Assembly (NCBI GenBank): GCA_016934575.1
Contig: JAFGSN010000121.1
Span: forward strand, 37,309-101,308
Direction of reading: 5' to 3'
Source of the DNA: Vicinamibacteria bacterium
GTDB taxonomy: Bacteria > Acidobacteriota > Vicinamibacteria > Fen-336
DNA length: 64,000 nucleotides
A model generated the notes under the pieces. It was given only the letters and a program-made list of their open reading frames with translations. It was not told where the DNA came from and did no database searches. The position numbers and the translations under genes were made by a program. Every line of letters begins with the position of its first letter. Position 1 is the first letter of the stretch. Shown here piece by piece: positions 22,442 to 62,165 of this stretch.

Positions 22442-24550
22442 GTGATAAATCTTCGTTTTCTGCGCCGCCTCGTTCGACGAATGATGACGCAAGAAGGCCG
22501 CGATCGCTTGTCGGGGATGGCACGGCGCCTTGTCGACGACAAAAAGCCCGCGTACTCCGAAAGCGAGCTTCTCGCCCGCACCGAGGAGTTCAATCGCGCC
22601 GCCGAGGCTTACTGGAGAAGCATCGCCGCCGATCCGGCCGGCCGGTCACACGCTTTCAACAAGCCGTTCAGCACTGTCAAGGACACCGGCGCCATTCTTT
22701 ACCGATTAGGGCTCGTGCTGAACGAGCTGGATCTCGGAGTGGGTCATATCGTGCTCGATTTCGGCGCCGGAAGCTGTTGGCTCTCCGCATGCCTCAATCG
22801 CCTGCGCTGCCGGACGATTTCCGTCGAAATCAGCGAAACGGCGCTGTCGCTCGGCCGCGAGCTTTTCGCCACGGATTCCCGGCTCACGGCCGATTTCGAA
22901 CCCGTTTTTCTTCCTTATGACGGCCACCGTATCGACCTGCCCCCCGAGTCCGTCGATCGAATCGTATGCTTCGACGCCTTTCACCACGTGCCCAATCAGG
23001 ACGCGGTGCTCGCCGAGCTGTATCGTGTTCTCAGGCCGGGAGGCCGCGCGGTTTTCGCGGAACCCGGGGAAGGGCACGCCCACTCGAATCAATCGCTCTT
23101 CGAGAGCGAGAAAACCGGCGTCCTCGAGAACGATCTCGACATACGCGAAATCGCCGCCAAGGCCCGCAAGGTCGGCTTCAACCGCGTTCTCTTGAAGCCT
23201 TATCCCGATCCGTCGGCGATCACCGTGACGGCCGACGAGTATCAACGGCTGATTGAAGGCTCGCGTAGAATCTACCCGCTGGACGTCTTGCGCGACAATC
23301 TGCGCCACTTTTATCTCTTCGTGCTGACCAAGGGAGAGCCTCGCCACGACAGCCGTAATCCACGACGGCTTCAGTCGACGATCGACGTGAGCGCCGAGTC
23401 GTCCGTCCTGCGCGGGCCGGCGGGCGCGAAGCGGACGTTCCATGCGCGGATCCGCAACACGGGCGACACGCTCTGGCTGCATGCAATCCACCCCGCGGGA
23501 GGATACGTCGGCCTCGGCGGACATCTGCTCGACGACAAACGCGAGGTCCTCGTCAGAGGCTATACGCGCGCATCGCTGCCGCGTGACGTGCCGCCCGGCA
23601 AGTCGGTGGATCTCGACGTGGATGTCGATCTGCCCGAGCATCGCGGCCGTTACACTCTCCAGTTGGACATGGTCGACGAATGGATCGCCTGGTTCGAGCA
23701 GGAAGGATCAAAGACGACGGAGATCGCTCTCGTCGTCGACTCCTATCCTGACAGCCGCGCGCCGCATCGTCTGGCCGCGGCCATCGAGCTGCTCTCGCCG
23801 CCTCCCGGCGCGGCGGTGCGCCCGGGCTCTCCTCTTCGCATCACGCTCCGGCTGCGAAACACCGGCGACACCGCTTGGCTCAATGAACCGTTCGGCGAAT
23901 TCGGCGCAGTCGCCTTGGGCGCCAGCCTGCTCGACGAGCTGGGCGCCGTGCGCTCGCGAGATCTTGCCCGCATGCCGCTTCCGCGCCCCGTCGCTCCGGA
24001 TGAAGCCGTCATGATGGATCTGCGCTTTCCCGCTCCGCCGATCCCCGGGCGCTTTGTCATCAAACTCGATCTCGTCGACGAAGGCGTGTGCTGGTTCGAG
24101 CATCACGGATCACCGACTATCGCGATCGCGGTGCAGACGAATGACGAGGTTCCGGACAGCCTGGCGCCCGGCACGCTTCTGGCGCGCATCGAGCCGACGA
24201 TCGTCGAAAACGCGCTGCAAGCCAAGGCGTCGACCGCTCTATGCTTCCATGCGCATGTCACGAACATCGGCAATACCCTCTGGCTGAGCGCTTTGAAACC
24301 GAGCCGGGGATACGTCGGCCTCGGCGCGCACCTCCGCAACGCCGACTTCGAGACGGTCGAGATGGATTTCTTGCGAGTCATGCTGCCTCGGGACGTTCCG
24401 CCGGGCGAGAGCGTCGACCTCGAATGTCGTTTCACCACCCCTCGAGAACCGGGCCGCTATGTGCTCGAGTTGGACATGGTGAACGAGCACATGTGCTGGT
24501 TCGCCGATCATGGTTCGGCTGTCGTTGGAATCGAGCTAAAAGTAAGCTGA
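22442..24550 (+). CDS. multidomain protein: N-terminal class I SAM-dependent methyltransferase followed by three tandem ~110-aa Ig-like repeat domains of unknown family
   Basis: MTase motif I (VLDFGAGSCW) and post-I/II motifs (VCFDAFHHV, LRPGGRAVFAEP). These are followed by three repeats, each carrying the signature N-[TI]-G-[DN]-T-x-W-L...G...LPR.V.P[GD]...DL...P...GR[YF]V..LD[ML]V.E..CWF..HGS. Confidence 0.55.
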   Translation: MINLRFLRRLVRRMMTQEGRDRLSGMARRLVDDKKPAYSESELLARTEEFNRAAEAYWRSIAADPAGRSHAFNKPFSTVKDTGAILYRLGLVLNELDLGVGHIVLDFGAGSCWLSACLNRLRCRTISVEISETALSLGRELFATDSRLTADFEPVFLPYDGHRIDLPPESVDRIVCFDAFHHVPNQDAVLAELYRVLRPGGRAVFAEPGEGHAHSNQSLFESEKTGVLENDLDIREIAAKARKVGFNRVLLKPYPDPSAITVTADEYQRLIEGSRRIYPLDVLRDNLRHFYLFVLTKGEPRHDSRNPRRLQSTIDVSAESSVLRGPAGAKRTFHARIRNTGDTLWLHAIHPAGGYVGLGGHLLDDKREVLVRGYTRASLPRDVPPGKSVDLDVDVDLPEHRGRYTLQLDMVDEWIAWFEQEGSKTTEIALVVDSYPDSRAPHRLAAAIELLSPPPGAAVRPGSPLRITLRLRNTGDTAWLNEPFGEFGAVALGASLLDELGAVRSRDLARMPLPRPVAPDEAVMMDLRFPAPPIPGRFVIKLDLVDEGVCWFEHHGSPTIAIAVQTNDEVPDSLAPGTLLARIEPTIVENALQAKASTALCFHAHVTNIGNTLWLSALKPSRGYVGLGAHLRNADFETVEMDFLRVMLPRDVPPGESVDLECRFTTPREPGRYVLELDMVNEHMCWFADHGSAVVGIELKVS
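23414..24541 (+). repeat. three in-frame tandem intragenic repeats (~330-400 nt each) encoding the repeated Ig-like domains of the MTase-repeat protein
   Basis: Repeat units at roughly 23414-23737, 23804-24136 and 24215-24541. Repeats 1 and 3 share exact 20-mers (for example gggatacgtcggcctcggcg) and a parallel cgcaacacgggcgacacgctctggctg-like segment. Confidence 0.6.
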
Positions 24551-25395: not shown

Positions 25396-25965
25396 ATGTC
25401 AGACAACAGCGCCGAGGCGGAGTTGTTGGTGAGGGCCAGTCGCGGGGATGAGACCGCGTTTCTCGTCATTTATGAGCGTCACTGTCACTCCATTTTTCGC
25501 TTTGCATATCGCTTGCTGGGATCCGTACAACTCGCGGAGGACGTCACGCACGACTGCTTCCTGGCGCTCCTTCGCCGGCCGGAAGGCTATCAAGCGGAAC
25601 GCGCATCCTTGCGGACATACCTCTGCGCGGCGACGCGAAACCTGGCGTTTCGTCTGCTGCGCAAACGCGGCGTCGAGACTCTGGTTGACGATGTCCCCGA
25701 ACCGCCGTCCTCGAATCGCACGCCCGAGCAGCTACGCAATCTTCTTGGCGACGAAATCATCCAGACGGTGCGGCAGGCCGTCGAAGCGCTGCCGCCTCTC
25801 CAGAGAGAAGCGTTGATTCTCTTCGAATACGAGGACCTGAGCCTGGCGGAAATCGCGCAAATCACTGAATCCGACGTCGGAACGGTGAAATCCCGCTTGC
25901 ATCGCGCTCGCCAACGCCTACGCCGCCGACTCGGACCATTATGCGCCCGGCCATCGATGGATTGA
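25396..25965 (+). CDS. RNA polymerase ECF-type sigma-70 factor
   Basis: 189 aa with region 2 (FRFAYRLLGSVQLAEDVTHDCFLALL) and region 4 (LSLAEIAQITESDVGTVKSRLHRARQRLR). Confidence 0.82.
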   Translation: MSDNSAEAELLVRASRGDETAFLVIYERHCHSIFRFAYRLLGSVQLAEDVTHDCFLALLRRPEGYQAERASLRTYLCAATRNLAFRLLRKRGVETLVDDVPEPPSSNRTPEQLRNLLGDEIIQTVRQAVEALPPLQREALILFEYEDLSLAEIAQITESDVGTVKSRLHRARQRLRRRLGPLCARPSMD

Positions 25966-25980
25966 ACGGAGATCAAGGTC

Positions 25981-26418
25981 ATGAAAGACGAGAAAACGAG
26001 AACTGCCGGCGAAAGAGAAGACATGGAGCATGATGATCCCGAGATCCGGCGGCTTCTGCGTCTCTGGGAATCGCCCGCCGTGACGTCGGAACTCAACGCG
26101 CGCGTCAGGGAAAGCTTCCGGCGACAGACCGCCGCGGCGACATACTGGCGGCGGCTCTTCGCGATATCGATACCGGTTCCTCTGCCGGTCGCCGCGCTCG
26201 TTCTGATCATGCTCCTGTTGTCGGCGACGTTCGCCTTGCGCAATCAATCAAAAGCGACGCAAGACGTTTCTCCGCTCGTCGAGGCCAGACTCACGGCGCA
26301 AAGCTCCGCGCCCGACATGAAGAACGACGCCCCCGTGGTGACTCGTACAAGCTTGGCCGGATTCGAGCCCGTGACCGATATGAATGTGGCCGTCGTCCCG
26401 GAGATCAGTATGCGATGA
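25981..26418 (+). CDS. putative single-pass anti-sigma factor
   Basis: 145 aa, 15 nt after the sigma gene. An N-terminal cytoplasmic helix region is followed by one TM helix (ISIPVPLPVAALVLIMLLLSATFAL). The stop overlaps the next gene's start (ATGA). Confidence 0.5.
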   Translation: MKDEKTRTAGEREDMEHDDPEIRRLLRLWESPAVTSELNARVRESFRRQTAAATYWRRLFAISIPVPLPVAALVLIMLLLSATFALRNQSKATQDVSPLVEARLTAQSSAPDMKNDAPVVTRTSLAGFEPVTDMNVAVVPEISMR

Positions 26419-27593
26419 ATCGAGCCCTCCTCTTCTCCGGATTCCTGGGCGCGAGTCTTGCGCAAGGGGCGGCTTTCTGCGCCAGCGGGCATTACGCCTT
26501 TGCCACGCTCGAGAACGGCGCCCATGTCGGTTTCGCGCTTCTCCGGACCGGAACCGCGAGCTCAACCACCATGATGGGGGAAGTCTCTTTGCCGCGCTCG
26601 AACGGCGTGAGCCGCGTCTTGGTGGACGAGAAAAGCCGCACCTACTTCGGTTATCGGCTCGAAGTCGAACTGAAGAATCGATCCGTATTCAAGGTCAGCG
26701 TCCAACCGCTGGCTTCCGACCTGGCGAAGGATCTGCGACGAATGTTCCCGTGCGAAAACTGCCCGCTCCCCAGTCTGCTCGCCCCAATTCCGCGAATTCC
26801 CGCGCCGCGCGTCGTCTCCGACGGAGACGTGTTCACTCTCGATCTGCTCGTGAATCCCAAGACGCAGGAAAAGATCATCGACATCGTCAAGATTTCGAAA
26901 TCTCCCATCAACGTCGAGACGATGAAGGTTTCATCGTCCAAAATCAGCGAGTCATTACGCGCGGTCAAAGACGCGGAGATCCACATGCTGGCCGGCCGAT
27001 ACACGAACGCGGTCAAGGAGTTCAAGAAAGCGTTGGACATCTACTCCGAAGACGCCATCGTTCACAACAAACTCGGCATTTGTCACCAGCGCAGCCAACG
27101 CATCAACGATGCTGAGCGTGCGTTCAAGGAAGCTTTGAAGATCAACCCGGATTATGCCGAGGCGTGGAACAACCTCGGCGCCCTCGATCATGGCCGGGGT
27201 GATTACAAACAAGCAATCAAGCATTATAAAAAGGCGCTTGCCGTCAAGGCCGATTTCGCGACGGCCTACAGGAACATGGGAACCGCGTATTTCGCTCTTC
27301 AACGCTTCGAGGAAGGATACGAAGCGTATCAGACCGCTTATCGCGTCGATCCCACGATCCTCGATGCCACCGCGACGATGCCCGTTGATGGAAGCCGCGA
27401 GTCGATTGCGATGCAATGCTTTTACGTCGCCAAGATCGCTGCGGCGAACGGCCAGACCAAAACGGCGCTTTTCTTCCTGCACAAGGCCGTGGAAGTAGGC
27501 TTCAAGGACTTCAAGCGGCTCAAGCGTGACCCGGACTTCAAGTCGGTCGTCGCGGATCCCCGCTTCAAACAACTCGTCGAGGAATCGAAGTAG
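26415..27593 (+). CDS. secreted TPR-repeat protein. An N-terminal signal peptide and Cys-containing domain are followed by 3-4 C-terminal TPR motifs.
   Basis: Signal peptide MNRALLFSGFLGASLAQGAAFC. TPR consensus residues appear in aa ~200-330 (AEAWNNLGALDHGRGDYKQAIKHYKKALAVKADFATAYRNMGTAYF). GC is lower than in neighbouring genes. Confidence 0.6.
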   Translation: MNRALLFSGFLGASLAQGAAFCASGHYAFATLENGAHVGFALLRTGTASSTTMMGEVSLPRSNGVSRVLVDEKSRTYFGYRLEVELKNRSVFKVSVQPLASDLAKDLRRMFPCENCPLPSLLAPIPRIPAPRVVSDGDVFTLDLLVNPKTQEKIIDIVKISKSPINVETMKVSSSKISESLRAVKDAEIHMLAGRYTNAVKEFKKALDIYSEDAIVHNKLGICHQRSQRINDAERAFKEALKINPDYAEAWNNLGALDHGRGDYKQAIKHYKKALAVKADFATAYRNMGTAYFALQRFEEGYEAYQTAYRVDPTILDATATMPVDGSRESIAMQCFYVAKIAAANGQTKTALFFLHKAVEVGFKDFKRLKRDPDFKSVVADPRFKQLVEESK

Positions 27594-28186: not shown

Positions 28187-29218
28187 CTAGGAAGTCTCTT
28201 GATTCGTGTCGATCTCGTCGGCGCCGGAATCGCCGCGGCCGCTCTCGCGCAGCTCTCTACGCGTCTCGGCGATGCGCCGGCGAATGATCCGCAGATAGGC
28301 GCGCGCCACCTTCTGGACGATGACGAGCAACTCGCCCATATTGGCCTTGACGGCGCCAGAGGCCCCGCCATCCCCGTAGACGAGATTGACGACCCGACCC
28401 CGCACGGCGATCGGGAACAGGGCCGCTGTCGCGCTCGGACGCTTGCCCAGCGTCTTCAGGAAACGCTGATTCTCCGCCTCTTGCCCGAGCCTTCCGATGA
28501 AGATCGTCTTGTCGCGCGTCACGATGCGAAACACCGAAGGCTGATCGAGAGGGATCTTGAAGCTGGCCGCCGTATGGCGATCGATGCCCTCCCCCAATCC
28601 GTTCCAACCCAGAATCCAGGGCTCGCGGACGATGAAGAAGATCACTCTTCGAAAATGATGAAGACACAACGCGAGAAGCGCGTCGACCACCTCGTCGCGA
28701 CTGGCGGCGGACTCGATCCGAGAGACCGCCGCCTGGGGGTCCAGCAGCGGCGGCGGCGCCGCCGCGTGATGCGTATCGGTGAATCGCCAGCGCTCGTCAA
28801 CGCCGTAAAAATCGCGCAGCAGGTGAATCATCCGCATCTCGGGGACAACGAGCGGGCGAATGATATAACCCAGGCGGAACCCCACTTCGGCCATCGCGGC
28901 ATGATCGTTCGGATCCACCATCAAAAGGTAGAGCGTCTTCCCGCGCAGCTTGAACGGGAACACTTTGTGTCGCGCCGCCATCGCCTTGGGAACGAGATCG
29001 ACGATCTCGGGCGTGATCTCGCGCATGTCGACCTTGACCGGAGGAACGCCGTGGATCTTGGCCAGGGCCTCCTCGAGACGCTCCTCGGTGATGAATCCCA
29101 GCTCAAAAAGGCTGGTTCCAAGCCGCCCGCCGTAAAGCACCTGATGCTGAACCGCCTCTTGGAGCTGCTGCTCCGTCACGATCCCGCGATCCCTCAGAAT
29201 GCGCGCCAGTATCGACAT
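28187..29218 (-). CDS. MshEN / T2SSE_N (GspE N-terminal) domain protein with a C-terminal domain of unknown function (possibly GAF-like). It is a putative c-di-GMP receptor.
   Basis: The N-terminal ~145 aa match the T2SSE_N fold. Two tandem 24-residue MshEN-type motifs are separated by a 5-aa spacer (LARILRDRGIVTEQQLQEAVQHQ-VLYGG-RLGTSLFELGFITEERLEEALAKI). There is no ATPase domain. Confidence 0.58.
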   Translation of the reverse strand: MSILARILRDRGIVTEQQLQEAVQHQVLYGGRLGTSLFELGFITEERLEEALAKIHGVPPVKVDMREITPEIVDLVPKAMAARHKVFPFKLRGKTLYLLMVDPNDHAAMAEVGFRLGYIIRPLVVPEMRMIHLLRDFYGVDERWRFTDTHHAAAPPPLLDPQAAVSRIESAASRDEVVDALLALCLHHFRRVIFFIVREPWILGWNGLGEGIDRHTAASFKIPLDQPSVFRIVTRDKTIFIGRLGQEAENQRFLKTLGKRPSATAALFPIAVRGRVVNLVYGDGGASGAVKANMGELLVIVQKVARAYLRIIRRRIAETRRELRESGRGDSGADEIDTNQETS

Positions 29219-29266
29219 CTTTATCTCGTCACCACCAGGCTATTCTAGAACAGACGCCGCCTTTTC

Positions 29267-30556
29267 GTGATGCTTCAACTGAGTTATCATTTTCAATCGT
29301 CTTTTTGGCTGTCACCGATGAACGGCAAGCAAGAATCGCTGACGTCTTATCATAGCCACCTGCCCCTTCTCACTTCCCAGCTCGTCGAAGTTGGAAGCTT
29401 CGGGATCATGGTGATCGACGCCTCGGCTTTCTCCGTCATCGAGCGCGAGTACGGCAGCGACACTTATGATCAAGTGCGCGGCCGCGTTCTCGATATTCTG
29501 CATGAGCATAGAGGCAAGGACTTCCGTCACGGAGACGTCGTCACGCTTGACGAGCCGCGCGGGCTGCGCCTGCTTCTGTTGCTCGAACGTAAACGGCTCG
29601 GTCCGTATCCTATCAGTCCCGCGGATTTCAAGATCGTTCGCGCGCGGCTCATCACGACCGTCGTGCCACGGCTGGCGCGGGCCGGCTTTCCCTACCTGAA
29701 AAATCCTCCGCGCATCGAGGTGGCATACGGCATGGCGCTCTACAATCCTCTCGTTCATCCAGAGAGCATCGTGCGCCGCACGATCGAGGAAGCCCTGGTC
29801 CAGGCGTCCCATCAACGCCTGGCCGACGAGCTCAACCAGCGCGAAAAGCTTCAGGACCTGATCATCCGTTCGCGAATCGTCACGGCCTTTCAGCCGATCG
29901 TTCTGCTCAAGGACCGCACGGTTCTCGGATTCGAGGCTCTCTCGCGCGGCGCTCGCGGAACCGGATTCGAGAACGCCGGCGATCTTTTCGGGACCGCCGC
30001 GCGTTACGCGCTCCTCGTGGAGCTGGACCGCCTCTGCCGGACGCGCGCTTTGCTGTCCTCCGGTCGCATCCCGACGAACGCCCGGATTTTCATCAACACC
30101 TTGCCGGCCACGATGCGCGATCCCCAGTTTCGCGGCAAGTCCCTGATCACGTTCCTCGAGCGCACTCAGGTCATGCCCGAGCGCCTCGTCATCGAAATCA
30201 CCGAGAAGCTCATCATCGAGAACTACGACGCCTTTCGTGAAACGCTCGCCTACTTCACCGATCTCGGCATTTCATTCGCGGTCGACGACGTCGGCGCGGG
30301 TTATTCCGGCCTGGAATCCATCGCCCGTCTCAAGCCGCACTACCTCAAGATCGACATGGCCCTGGTGCGCGACGTGCATTCGAGCGTCACCAGTCGCGCC
30401 ATGGTTCAAGCCATCCTCGCCATGGGACAGGACATCGGCTCCACGGTCATCGCCGAAGGAATCCAGACGCGGGAAGAGGCCGACACGCTCTTCTCCATGG
30501 GCGTCAGCATCGGCCAAGGTTTCTATCTCGCTCGGCCAGACATGGGACCCGAGTGA
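29267..30556 (+). CDS. EAL-domain cyclic-di-GMP phosphodiesterase with an N-terminal degenerate GGDEF-like domain
   Basis: C-terminal EAL domain with intact catalytic motifs (FEALSR, FQPIV, DDVGAGYSGL, KIDMALV, AEGIQT, GQGFYLARP). The N-terminal ~190 aa resemble a GGDEF fold (MVIDASAFSVIEREYGSDTYDQVRGRVLDIL) but lack GG[DE]EF. The start may be ATG 29318. Confidence 0.72.
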   Translation: MMLQLSYHFQSSFWLSPMNGKQESLTSYHSHLPLLTSQLVEVGSFGIMVIDASAFSVIEREYGSDTYDQVRGRVLDILHEHRGKDFRHGDVVTLDEPRGLRLLLLLERKRLGPYPISPADFKIVRARLITTVVPRLARAGFPYLKNPPRIEVAYGMALYNPLVHPESIVRRTIEEALVQASHQRLADELNQREKLQDLIIRSRIVTAFQPIVLLKDRTVLGFEALSRGARGTGFENAGDLFGTAARYALLVELDRLCRTRALLSSGRIPTNARIFINTLPATMRDPQFRGKSLITFLERTQVMPERLVIEITEKLIIENYDAFRETLAYFTDLGISFAVDDVGAGYSGLESIARLKPHYLKIDMALVRDVHSSVTSRAMVQAILAMGQDIGSTVIAEGIQTREEADTLFSMGVSIGQGFYLARPDMGPE

Positions 30557-58617: not shown

Positions 58618-59463
58618 CTATTCTTCAAGTTTTTCTTGAGAAAGATTATCAATCACACTCTGTAGAATCCGAATGATCTCGCCTCGCTCAACCTCTGATT
58701 TACGAAAATGGACTGAAAGCCGGAATGATTTCTCCTGAGGTTGAAAATGAAACACATAGTTCTTGGGTCTGCCACGAGTAACGCCTTTTATCTGCTTCTT
58801 AATATGCCTGGCTTTCTCTCGTGTCAGCGGACCCTGTTGAAGTTGCTCGACGAGAGCGATCATTTCCTGTGGCGATTTCTGCCTAACAACCTGTAATAAC
58901 AACGACTTAGTCCGAATGTCGGCCAGCCGACATAGCTCTCTGACTTCATCCGGCATTCCGGAGATTGCCAGGGTCTCTGTAATCGACGTTCGGCTCTTAC
59001 CGATCTTTTCGGCAATCATCTCGTGGGTATAACCAAACCTGTCCGCAAGAGCCTTGAGTCCATCCGCCTCTTCAAACGGTTCGAGATCCTTCCTCTGAAG
59101 ATTCTCGACAAGAGCTAACTCCATCACTTCCGCGTCCGAGCTGGATCGTATAACGCACGGTATCTCGGCGAGGCTGGCATCAACGGCAGCGCGATAGCGT
59201 CTCTCGCCGGCAATGATCTGGTATCGACTACCGATTGGACGGACGATGATGGGCTCGATAACGCCCTTCTCCCGGATGGATTCTGTGAGCTCTGTAAGAT
59301 CTCCAAAACCTTGCCTGGGCTGTGTTGGATTGGGATCAATATCCTCAATGGGTAACAGTCGACCAATGGGATGTCCATTCGGGCGGGTTAATTGGTCGAC
59401 GAAGTGCAAATCGTGCCTCATTCTTTTGGCATCTGGTAAACCGATACGACGCGCGCTAGACAC
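58618..59463 (-). CDS. parB: chromosome partitioning protein ParB (Spo0J)
   Basis: ParB box (GVIEPIIVRP...YQIIAGERRYRAA) and an HTH. A GTG at 59463 gives MSSARRIGLPDAKRM..., a ParB-like N-terminus, with GAGGAGG 9 nt upstream and an 8-nt overlap with parA. The track ORF is over-extended to 59661. Confidence 0.8.
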   Translation of the reverse strand: MSSARRIGLPDAKRMRHDLHFVDQLTRPNGHPIGRLLPIEDIDPNPTQPRQGFGDLTELTESIREKGVIEPIIVRPIGSRYQIIAGERRYRAAVDASLAEIPCVIRSSSDAEVMELALVENLQRKDLEPFEEADGLKALADRFGYTHEMIAEKIGKSRTSITETLAISGMPDEVRELCRLADIRTKSLLLQVVRQKSPQEMIALVEQLQQGPLTREKARHIKKQIKGVTRGRPKNYVFHFQPQEKSFRLSVHFRKSEVERGEIIRILQSVIDNLSQEKLEE

Positions 59464-60217
59464 GTTCAATGACCTCCTCACAGAGGCGATAATACTCATA
59501 TGCACCACTCGACTGGGGTGCAAAGGTGAATATCGTTTCCCGATGTGCCGGACTCTCTTCGAGACGGATGCTCCGACTGATGATCGTTTCAAAAACACGA
59601 TCACCAAAGACATCGGCGATGGACTTCTGCACGTCACGAGACAACGTCGTACGCTTGTCATGCAACGTGATCAGCGCACCGAGAAGCTTGAGCTGCGGAT
59701 TGGGACGCGAACGGATTCTGTCAATCGTTTCAAGGAGATCGTCCGTACCTTCAAGCGCGAAGTAACTGGACTGAACGGGTATCAGGAGATGTGTCGCAGC
59801 CACGAGTGCATTCACGGTGATCAGGCCAAGGGCCGGCGGCGTGTCAATGATCACGAAATCGTACTGATCCTTAATGGACTCGAGACAATCCTTGAGTCGA
59901 AAATGGCCGTCGATTTCTCCAATGAGCTTGGCCTCGAGTTTGGCAAGCGATATCCTGGAAGGGGATAGATAAAGCTTGTCAATCGTTGTCGGGATGATGA
60001 TGCCGGAGAGAGGCATGCCATCCGCGAGCACCTCATACATCGTTCGATCGACAGCATGCGGCTCAACAAAGGTGATCGTCGAATTCGCCTGGGGATCCAG
60101 ATCGATGAGAAGGGTCCTCTGCCCGCGCATCCCCAAGGCGGCAGCGAGGTTGATCGCTGTCGTGGTCTTACCCACGCCTCCCTTCTGATTGGCGATGGCG
60201 ATGATTATCAAGGACAC
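59456..60217 (-). CDS. parA: chromosome partitioning ATPase ParA (Soj)
   Basis: Deviant Walker A motif IAIANQKGGVGKTTTAINLAAAL in a 253-aa ORF. Confidence 0.88.
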   Translation of the reverse strand: MSLIIIAIANQKGGVGKTTTAINLAAALGMRGQRTLLIDLDPQANSTITFVEPHAVDRTMYEVLADGMPLSGIIIPTTIDKLYLSPSRISLAKLEAKLIGEIDGHFRLKDCLESIKDQYDFVIIDTPPALGLITVNALVAATHLLIPVQSSYFALEGTDDLLETIDRIRSRPNPQLKLLGALITLHDKRTTLSRDVQKSIADVFGDRVFETIISRSIRLEESPAHRETIFTFAPQSSGAYEYYRLCEEVIERV

Positions 60218-60830: not shown

Positions 60831-62165
60831 TCAATGCGGTGCAACGCCTTCCACCCAACGACCCGTCAGAGAATTTGCACCAGCGTCAACAATCTCAACA
60901 CTCACGGTCTTCCCGATGAAAGATTCTGTTCCGTGGAAGTGAACGATCCTGAGATGTTTAGTTCGGCCGCAGAGTTGACCCTTCGAATTCACCTGATCGA
61001 CCAGCACAGATTCTTGTGTTCCGATGAACTCTCGATGACGCGCCCGTTGACAAGCTTGCTGCCATCCGTTCAACTCGTTCAGACGACGGCGTTTGGTCGT
61101 CAAAGGCACATCGTCATTAAAGGTTTGCGCCAGTGTCCCCGGCCGAGATGAGTAGAGAAAACTGAAAAGACCATCAAATCTCACTTCATTCAATAACCGC
61201 ATTGTCTCACTGAAATCGTCTTCTGTCTCTCCAGGATACCCGACGATGATATCGCTGGTCACTGCGATGTCCGGCACAATTCGTCTCAAAAGCGCGACTT
61301 TCTCGATGTAATCCTTGGAGGTATAACCTCGCCGCATAGATTTCAAGATTCTATCCGATCCGGACTGAACAGGCAGGTGGATCTGTGGACAGATGTTGGC
61401 ATGATCCCGCATGACTTCTGCCAGCTTCGTCGTGATATGAGTTGGATGATTCGACGTGAATCGTAATCGTCTCAGCTTTGGTATTGCCGCCACATGATCA
61501 AGAAGATCCGCGAGGTCTTTCTTTCCCCAGCGATATGCATTCACCATTTGGCCCAGGAACATGACCTCCTGAAAGCCTCGACGGATGAGTTGCTCAACTT
61601 CGGCGACGATTTCATTGTAAGGACGGCATCGTTCAGGCCCTCTCGTTCTCGGAACGACACAGTAGCTACAAACATGACTGCATCCTTCCATCACGGTTAC
61701 ATATGCCCGCACGGTGCTCGTGTGCGCAATGAGAGACGGCGGCATGCTGAAGAGATCTCGATCGTATCGCGACACGTCGACGATCTTCTCTCCCGTCTCG
61801 CCACCAAGTCTCTTCAATACATCGGGAATTCGATGAATACAGTGCGTCCCAATCACCGCGTCAATCTGAGGCGCGCGATCGAGCAGACTCCGGCCATGAA
61901 GCTGCGCCACGCATCCTCCGACAATGATGTTCATTCCCGGATGGTTGGTCTTTGATAGTCGTAAGCGACCAAGAAGAGAGAAGAGCTTTTTCTCTGCCTT
62001 TTCACGTACAGCGCATGTATGGATCAATACGAGATCGGACTGGTTGCGACTTGACGCAGGGACCAGGCCAGCGTGGCGCAATAAACCTGCCGACCGCTCC
62101 GAATCATTGACATTCATCTGGCATCCGAACGTATCAATCCAATATGTTGAAAATCCTTTTTTCAT
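60831..62165 (-). CDS. miaB: tRNA-i6A37 methylthiotransferase MiaB (radical SAM MTTase)
   Basis: N-terminal MTTase domain (YWIDTFGCQMNVNDSE), the radical-SAM motif CSHVCSYCVVP, and a C-terminal TRAM domain. Confidence 0.75.
   Translation of the reverse strand: MKKGFSTYWIDTFGCQMNVNDSERSAGLLRHAGLVPASSRNQSDLVLIHTCAVREKAEKKLFSLLGRLRLSKTNHPGMNIIVGGCVAQLHGRSLLDRAPQIDAVIGTHCIHRIPDVLKRLGGETGEKIVDVSRYDRDLFSMPPSLIAHTSTVRAYVTVMEGCSHVCSYCVVPRTRGPERCRPYNEIVAEVEQLIRRGFQEVMFLGQMVNAYRWGKKDLADLLDHVAAIPKLRRLRFTSNHPTHITTKLAEVMRDHANICPQIHLPVQSGSDRILKSMRRGYTSKDYIEKVALLRRIVPDIAVTSDIIVGYPGETEDDFSETMRLLNEVRFDGLFSFLYSSRPGTLAQTFNDDVPLTTKRRRLNELNGWQQACQRARHREFIGTQESVLVDQVNSKGQLCGRTKHLRIVHFHGTESFIGKTVSVEIVDAGANSLTGRWVEGVAPH

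Follow-up and report, generated by a model that had tools for sequence, protein, structure and literature searches.

A putative MshEN-GAF signalling adaptor paired with a divergent degenerate-GGDEF/EAL gene in Vicinamibacteria

What does a receptor domain for cyclic di-guanosine monophosphate (c-di-GMP) do when it is carried by neither an ATPase nor a glycosyltransferase, and what does it signify that a gene of c-di-GMP turnover stands opposite? Of the c-di-GMP receptor domains, only one is more widespread than MshEN, and functional work on the latter has dealt nearly exclusively with ATPase- or glycosyltransferase-linked forms. The question is raised by two genes in a 64,000-nucleotide stretch (hereafter, the window) of a Vicinamibacteria (Acidobacteriota) metagenome-assembled genome (MAG). 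Open reading frame (ORF) A (window positions 28187..29218, minus strand), recognized from the ORF call and domain matches, encodes an MshEN-GAF protein of 343 amino acids (aa), and EAL1 (29318..30556, plus strand) encodes a 412-aa degenerate-GGDEF/EAL protein, a putative c-di-GMP phosphodiesterase. We give about an even chance (roughly 0.5) to the reading that ORF A is a c-di-GMP-responsive adaptor, with its ligand pool set by the partner phosphodiesterase and its output passing through the GAF domain. The original prediction, made from the letters of the window, had described the two genes as divergent and about 50-100 base pairs (bp) apart, and they lie where it had placed them. The EAL1 frame, 429 aa long, opens with GTG; homologues and the NCBI annotation begin at Met18 (window position 29318, 412 aa), and therefore the divergent gap measures 99 bp, or 48 bp if the GTG is used. 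This AT-rich intergenic region (29219..29317, assigned to no strand) presumably holds the promoters of both genes; a promoter and terminator scan of its 99 bp returned one weak sigma-70-like match, not above chance. ORF A is 100% identical to the NCBI entry 'hypothetical protein JXO72_08435' from a Vicinamibacteria MAG, and a database search yielded hundreds of homologues of the same length, 63-88% identical.

The N-terminal part of ORF A is matched by two MshEN profiles, both far above chance: Pfam MshEN (PF05157) over aa 56-142 (E 1.4e-15, 57.4 bits against a cutoff of 23.1) and NCBIfam NF053729 'c-di-GMP_motif, MshE-related' over aa 6-54 (52 bits against a cutoff of 38, E 4.5e-14). It also has the MshEN fold, a four-helix bundle joined to an alpha/beta subdomain, as in PDB 5HTL. 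By alignment, the bundle comprises two 24-residue motifs separated by exactly five residues, in a register that is the same in all 39 aligned homologues: motif I (aa 3-26, ILARILRDRGIVTEQQLQEAVQHQ; 29141..29212, minus strand), the spacer VLYGG (aa 27-31; 29126..29140, minus strand) and motif II (aa 32-55, RLGTSLFELGFITEERLEEALAKI; 29054..29125, minus strand). The alpha/beta subdomain follows at aa 56-143 (28790..29053, minus strand). The spacer is invariant in the Vicinamibacteria clade; its family-wide form is V-x-[FY]-G-G, which, followed by R-L-G-T, is a signature of the MshEN-GAF proteins. The bundle (aa 1-55) is the best conserved part of ORF A, with a mean column identity of 0.91 versus ~0.80 in the other domains. 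No ATPase domain was found in ORF A with Pfam, NCBIfam or the PDB sequence set, and it carries no output domain of an enzymatic or DNA-binding kind. The MshEN N-terminus, the tandem motifs with their five-residue gap and the missing secretion ATPase had all been anticipated by the original prediction.

Is the nucleotide-binding site intact? The strict consensus for both motifs is RLGxx(L/V/I)(L/V/I)xxG(L/V/I)(L/V/I)xxxxLxxxLxxQ (Wang et al. 2016), and ORF A departs from it in both. Motif I opens with I-L-A rather than R-L-G, with Ile3 in place of Arg (position 1), Ala5 in place of Gly (position 3) and Arg9 in place of a core hydrophobic residue (position 7), and keeps its terminal Gln26; motif II is canonical except for Ile55 in place of the final Gln (position 24). 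We compared these positions in a scan of one genome per GTDB species, which gave 49 Vicinamibacteria-type loci and 31 distant homologues. Position 1 of motif I is Ile in all 49 Vicinamibacteria species loci, position 3 is split between Gly (23) and Ala (26), and position 7 is Arg or Lys throughout the clade; the final Gln of motif II is absent from all 49 species, with Ala, Ile or Val there across the family. Judged from these alignments, the c-di-GMP site of ORF A is systematically non-canonical in Vicinamibacteria. The choice of Gly or Ala at position 3 tracks the type of operon opposite ORF A (Gly mostly with EAL1 alone or no operon, Ala with the kinase operon described below), a correlation that most likely reflects phylogeny and is not used here as evidence. 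The residue after motif II (aa 56, window 29051-29053) is His, and is His, Lys, Arg, Tyr or Gln in 47 of the 49 species; such a polar donor may substitute, shifted by one, for the missing Gln.

Other parts of the site are retained. The two Leu triangles (positions 2, 17 and 21 of each motif), which stack on the guanines of c-di-GMP (Wang et al. 2016), are both kept as L4, L19, V23, L33, L48 and L52, grouped L4/L48/L52 and L19/V23/L33, with V23 replaced by Ile in most homologues. Also present are Gly12 and Gly41 at the helix-turn, Arg32-Leu33-Gly34 and Gln26. The PilF GSPII-B domain, in which position 1 is occupied by Lys and Leu, has a dissociation constant of 6 nM; that of its K167L mutant is 2 nM, and the consensus start is thereby extended to (R/K/L)LG (PMC11731258). 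Single Gln-to-Glu mutants of GSPII-B lost 77-158-fold in affinity and still bound at 0.5-1 µM, and the double mutant was dead (PMC11731258). By chemical similarity Ile3 fits the extended start, and we do not expect it to be a problem for binding.

The site departs from the consensus unequally in its two halves and in a strictly conserved way, with Ile at position 1 and Arg or Lys at position 7 of motif I and without Gln at the close of motif II; this pattern could be taken to mean that ORF A binds another nucleotide, with motif II as an intact half-site and motif I as an altered one. Linear pGpG is a candidate, being the product that EAL phosphodiesterases make from c-di-GMP by established chemistry and hence a product of the partner's enzyme class. 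A second candidate is 3'3'-cyclic GMP-AMP (cGAMP), which MshEN binds weakly (Wang et al. 2016). Proven c-di-GMP binders, however, tolerate deviations of the extent seen in ORF A, and the case for another ligand is inferential. We know of no MshEN domain that prefers pGpG or cGAMP, and we regard this alternative as very unlikely.

That the two genes belong together is suggested by their conservation. When the window neighbours were used as tBLASTn queries, the EAL gene alone was found to travel with ORF A, always upstream and divergent; ThrS, TPR, ECF-sigma (extracytoplasmic function sigma factor) and the other window neighbours are not conserved beside it. A divergent operon containing EAL1 is present in 42 of the 48 informative Vicinamibacteria species loci, and two further loci break at a contig edge with a response-regulator (REC) or histidine kinase (HK) gene adjacent (44/48, ~90%). 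In 22 loci EAL1 stands alone, with a gap of ~80-170 bp in 19 and of up to ~480 bp in three with fragmented matches. In 18 others (two of them incomplete) it follows genes for a HAMP hybrid histidine kinase, a single-domain response regulator and an EAL2 paralogue, and in two the order is HK-REC-EAL1; four loci have no operon and one is uninformative. A REC-EAL2-EAL1 form was found in a metagenome contig. In the four-gene form, exemplified by locus L047 (561-5852, equal to L081 4561-9852) and found in 17 other loci, the kinase reads HAMP-HisKA-HATPase-REC. Whatever its composition, the operon always ends in EAL1. No kinase, REC or EAL2 orthologue is present in the window, whose genome has the minimal two-gene form.

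The original prediction can be judged in three further respects. Conservation of the divergent pair, which it had named as a check, is borne out by the ~90% of Vicinamibacteria species loci in which the pair persists while the other neighbours change. Its picture of a stand-alone, compact module suits the window and the 22 loci with EAL1 only, and fails for the 18-20 loci in which EAL1 is the last gene of an HK-REC-(EAL2)-EAL1 operon. Nor is the architecture peculiar to this locus: MshEN-GAF proteins form a large family that has no EAL linkage outside Vicinamibacteria, and it is the EAL pairing that is clade-specific.

A second recurrent neighbour set, a PEGA-PDZ-TPR gene with a small FHA-domain gene, lies on the far side of the EAL operon (L027 and L037, upstream of 6001; L081, 482-2979). 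In the two operon-less loci examined, of the four, the PEGA-PDZ and FHA genes abut ORF A directly; because they adjoin ORF A when the operon is absent, the EAL operon behaves as a cassette. One typical Vicinamibacteria ORF A and EAL1 pair (58-60% identity) was found on a 3.6-kb contig binned as 'uncultured Hyphomicrobium sp.' (L036, CAXMOH010000078.1), which is probably a binning contaminant and not a case of horizontal transfer.

Is the partner an enzyme? The EAL domain of EAL1 (aa 184-408; 29867..30541, plus strand) matches Pfam EAL with an E value of 1.6e-48, and its best PDB sequence match is the active phosphodiesterase BlrP1. Competence was judged against RocR residues E175, N233, E265, E268, D295, K316 and E352 and the recognition residues Q161, R179, D296 and D318 (PMC2952852). 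The corresponding catalytic and metal-binding set of EAL1 (E206, N260, E293, E296, D323, K344 and E380) and its recognition residues (Q192, R210, D324 and D346) are invariant in 42 aligned sequences. The EGVE motif is incomplete, reading EGIQ, with the second Glu replaced by Gln or His across the family; the equivalent mutation in TBD1265, E706A, was without effect on activity according to the statement quoted in PMC12943098. EAL1 is, by its residues, a catalytically competent-looking putative phosphodiesterase.

The N-terminal domain of EAL1 (aa 9-147; 29342..29758, plus strand) has the GGDEF/nucleotidyl-cyclase fold where Pfam failed to detect one: no Pfam match at all was obtained at E<=10 in six EAL1 family members or in the EAL2 paralogue, a 444-aa protein that shares 33% identity with EAL1 and in which 'RGDKF' is what is left of GGDEF. 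The GG[DE]EF signature of EAL1 is gone and the hairpin reads DEPRGL. An intact EAL domain behind a lost GGDEF was indeed what the original prediction had described, and all the EAL motifs it quoted are present, as are the 11 invariant catalytic and recognition residues. R70xxD73 (window 29525-29536), directly before beta-2, is also invariant. In an I-site the RxxD stands five residues ahead of the signature; here the hairpin is ~2 residues longer than usual, which makes the register to the lost signature ambiguous, and R70xxD73 may be a retained I-site, through which EAL1 may itself be under allosteric c-di-GMP control. The closest described counterparts of EAL1 are GGDEF(degenerate)-EAL phosphodiesterases such as PdeA of Caulobacter crescentus and PA0575 of Pseudomonas aeruginosa, and it differs from them in a GGDEF domain that Pfam misses entirely, the replacement of the signature by DEPRGL, the lack of an N-terminal sensor domain and the retained RxxD.

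What, then, does the remainder of ORF A contribute? Its residues ~150-343 have no family match in Pfam, NCBIfam or the PDB sequence set. The region has the GAF fold, a six-stranded antiparallel sheet flanked by helices (aa 161-328 including a long C-terminal helix; 28235..28738, minus strand), and as modelled it is a cryptic, GAF-like domain. The Pfam GAF models do not match the window protein, and GAF_2 matches one of 114 family representatives; a distant homologue, L049, scores 23.3 bits with PF01590, for which the cutoff is 22.4. The guess of a GAF-like domain offered in the original prediction is upheld by the fold and by this match. The canonical cyclic nucleoside monophosphate (cNMP) motif 'NKFDE' is not visible in the sequence of the domain. 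Residues of the domain that are invariant across the family are R174, R191, G204-W205, G209, F230, G242, P269, Y281 and D283.

An exhaustive HMMER search with aa 150-343 of ORF A as the query against 1.84 billion representatives recovered 2,449 clusters with this domain at E<=1e-3, of which 670 also pass E<=1e-10. It is nearly always found at the C-terminal end, in proteins of 200-1,100 aa, and Pfam MshEN is present in 89 of 114 (78%) diverse family representatives. The source names of ten family representatives are all 'hypothetical protein'. In all likelihood ORF A is a cytoplasmic signalling adaptor from a large and uncharacterised family, whose members join MshEN to a divergent GAF domain. 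Some representatives extend this plan: in P0279 and P0363 the GAF-like domain is followed by PilZ (MshEN-GAF-PilZ), which gives two putative c-di-GMP modules per protein, and in P0291, P0354, P0370 and P0381 it is followed by HEAT repeats.

Under the adaptor reading, an input (the kinase, where present) would tune the phosphodiesterase activity of EAL1, and EAL1, under two-component control in many species, would set (lower) the local c-di-GMP seen by ORF A. The N-terminal four-helix bundle would bind the ligand with an affinity probably below that of canonical MshEN, and binding would move the GAF domain or alter its oligomeric state. That domain might relay the signal to a partner by protein-protein contact or integrate a second small ligand, so that ORF A would convert the local c-di-GMP level into a cellular output.

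Several observations weigh against this reading. ORF A departs even from the relaxed motif pattern, [RKPN]hGxxhhxx[GAS]hhxxxxhxxxhxx[QNKRYWST] (Wang et al. 2016), agreeing at 8 of 11 positions in motif I and 10 of 11 in motif II, with three and one failing positions, respectively. In the resurrected PilF GSPII-A domain, a Gly-to-Ala change at position 3 made binding ~10-fold weaker (1.8 to 19 µM), no binding was left once the position-1 Arg was also replaced by Ser, and detectable binding was regained only with the position-1 Arg and both Gln (PMC12002112). Binding of c-di-GMP is a prediction for the family as a whole, including MXAN_4436 and MXAN_2924 of Myxococcus xanthus, which Wang et al. 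list as predicted binders. Near ORF A, the window has no diguanylate cyclase, pilus, secretion or polysaccharide gene to hint at its output. Four Vicinamibacteria species hold ORF A without the operon, and the distant Kofleriaceae homologues show only housekeeping synteny (QueC, CobT, GGACT, FecCD) and no EAL linkage; because of these housekeeping neighbours the EAL link appears clade-specific, and it could reflect shared regulation or inherited synteny.

With motif deviations in ORF A and mutagenesis pointing both ways, high-affinity binding is not to be assumed. This qualifies the original prediction, which had spoken of a high-affinity c-di-GMP site: the motif layout and the Leu triangles agree with it, and the Arg and Gly of motif I and the Gln of motif II, residues whose lack it had itself named as telling against the assignment, are missing. 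By analogy with the PilF domains, Ala5 and the missing Gln55 probably lower the predicted affinity without abolishing it, and micromolar binding by ORF A is plausible.

The same deviations would also fit a reading in which the MshEN domain is degenerate and serves for protein contacts without binding a nucleotide, as XpsE-N does and as the PilB N-domain does within the FimX-PilZ-PilB complex of Xanthomonas, and in which the GGDEF*-EAL protein is the real c-di-GMP sensor, a 'trigger' enzyme docking on ORF A and controlling it by its own ligand state. XpsE and PilF GSPII-A are MshEN folds that fail to bind after a few changes such as the loss of Arg and Gly from motif I and Gln from motif II, and the invariant RxxD at the I-site position of the EAL1 GGDEF-like domain would suit a sensor. 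Yet EAL1, unlike FimX, retains every catalytic residue, no PilZ adaptor is encoded near ORF A in the window, the ligand-contacting hydrophobic clusters of ORF A are intact within its most conserved region, and GSPII-B binds at nanomolar concentrations with hydrophobic residues at position 1. We consider this arrangement unlikely, if worth keeping in view.

A different objection concerns the pairing itself. The adjacency might amount to a shared promoter region or inherited synteny, with ORF A acting apart from the phosphodiesterase, perhaps sensing a metabolite through its GAF domain while its MshEN domain reads the global c-di-GMP pool or nothing. The four operon-less species, in the two examined of which the operon is cleanly missing between the FHA gene and ORF A, and the thousands of family members elsewhere without EAL linkage fit such independence, and all the loci come from one class, so that the counts are not phylogenetically independent. 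Against it, the pair persists where every other neighbour has been replaced, the window included, and across three operon compositions, a pattern typical of functional coupling. A purely positional association strikes us as rather improbable, and the c-di-GMP-responsive adaptor remains the reading we prefer.

How does the pair compare with systems already described? Vibrio cholerae MshE and the Thermus thermophilus PilF GSPII-B/C domains carry MshEN on a secretion or pilus ATPase, whereas the MshEN domain of ORF A has no ATPase. Relative to them, the ORF A type opens motif I with I-L-A or I-L-G, places Arg or Lys at its core position 7 and ends motif II without Gln; the spacer, variable in classical MshEN domains, is conserved as V-x-[FY]-G-G. 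Other comparable proteins occur in M. xanthus. MXAN_4436 and MXAN_2924 appear in Supplementary Table 3 of Wang et al. (2016) as predicted, not experimental, c-di-GMP-binding MshEN proteins, and a literature search on the two returned nothing beyond that listing. Over the N-terminal ~72 residues printed in the supplement, both share the signature of the ORF A family, Q-V/L-x-[HY]-G-G-R-L-G-[TS]-N-L, and the N-terminus of MXAN_4436 shares 48% identity with that of ORF A and 83% with P0332, a 596-aa representative with a C-terminal GAF-like domain. The two proteins seem longer than ORF A through Pro-rich linkers, motif I of MXAN_4436 has the canonical R-L-G, unlike ORF A, and the Myxococcota homologues examined have no EAL linkage, unlike ORF A of Vicinamibacteria. 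Sequence comparison points to MXAN_4436 and MXAN_2924 as probable M. xanthus members of the MshEN-GAF family.

A third M. xanthus protein, FrgA (MXAN_1130, ABF88426), is required for developmental aggregation. It was designated 'MshEN-UNK-HEAT' and predicted to be a non-binder (Wang et al. 2016). Like ORF A, it has MshEN followed by an unannotated domain, with HEAT repeats in addition; the comparison rests on the N-terminus, where identity is only 34-43% over 50-70 aa. Because MshEN-GAFlike-HEAT representatives exist, the 'UNK' of FrgA is, by analogy, probably this GAF-like domain. A parallel to the pairing is offered by the Escherichia coli glycosyltransferase NfrB, the best match for the ORF A MshEN region among the full-length models of NCBIfam, which together with DgcJ likewise represents an MshEN effector genetically coupled to one specific c-di-GMP enzyme. 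In that system the partner is a cyclase and the effector a glycosyltransferase, whereas here the partner is a putative phosphodiesterase and the effector domain GAF.

The other neighbours of the pair in the window are housekeeping genes or belong to an unrelated ECF-sigma operon. The latter (25396-27593, plus strand) comprises the ECF sigma factor, a small putative anti-sigma protein and a TPR protein and converges on the 3' end of ORF A, an adjacency not conserved in other genomes. Rfam families, including the c-di-GMP riboswitch, and tRNA genes were not found in the window. A role of the pair as a defence system was considered and rejected, PADLOC giving no match for either protein. Two unrelated features were observed. 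A 702-aa S-adenosylmethionine (SAM)-dependent methyltransferase (22442-24550, plus strand) has C-terminal ~400 residues that seem to form three tandem repeats of ~125 aa ('NTGDTLWL...GYVGLG.HL...LPRDVPPG.SVDL...GRY.L.LDMV.E..WF') with a faint Ig-like Pfam match. In the segment 58000-62000 the GC content drops to ~0.50, versus ~0.62 elsewhere; here a ParB-like gene (58618-59661) and a MiaB-like radical-SAM gene (60831-62165), both on the minus strand, precede a RecN-like gene.

Signalling by c-di-GMP has hardly been studied in the Vicinamibacteria, which are abundant in soil. M. xanthus has 17 MshEN proteins, and many bacteria carry MshEN with 'unknown' partner domains. All the kinds of component described here were already known, and the architecture of MshEN plus an unknown domain was catalogued in 2016; new are the assignment of that domain to the GAF type in cryptic form, an estimate of how large the family is, the coupling to a phosphodiesterase operon in Vicinamibacteria and the residue-level description of a non-canonical site. 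A bolder proposal, and in our estimate a long shot, would make the MshEN-GAF family, with its thousands of clusters in Myxococcota, Acidobacteriota, Desulfuromonadota and Gemmatimonadota and probably with FrgA among its members, a widespread class of second-messenger adaptors in which nucleotide binding by MshEN gates the GAF domain; the Vicinamibacteria branch, with its conserved asymmetric site and an obligate phosphodiesterase partner, may then sense pGpG or enter a direct complex with the enzyme rather than simply read free c-di-GMP. Our analysis indicates that one large group of MshEN proteins with an unknown partner domain consists of MshEN-GAF fusions, and the Vicinamibacteria locus offers a compact system of two to five genes in which to learn the role of MshEN proteins that are not ATPases. 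Should the altered motif prove to change ligand specificity, or the two proteins to form a complex, the result would gain in importance.

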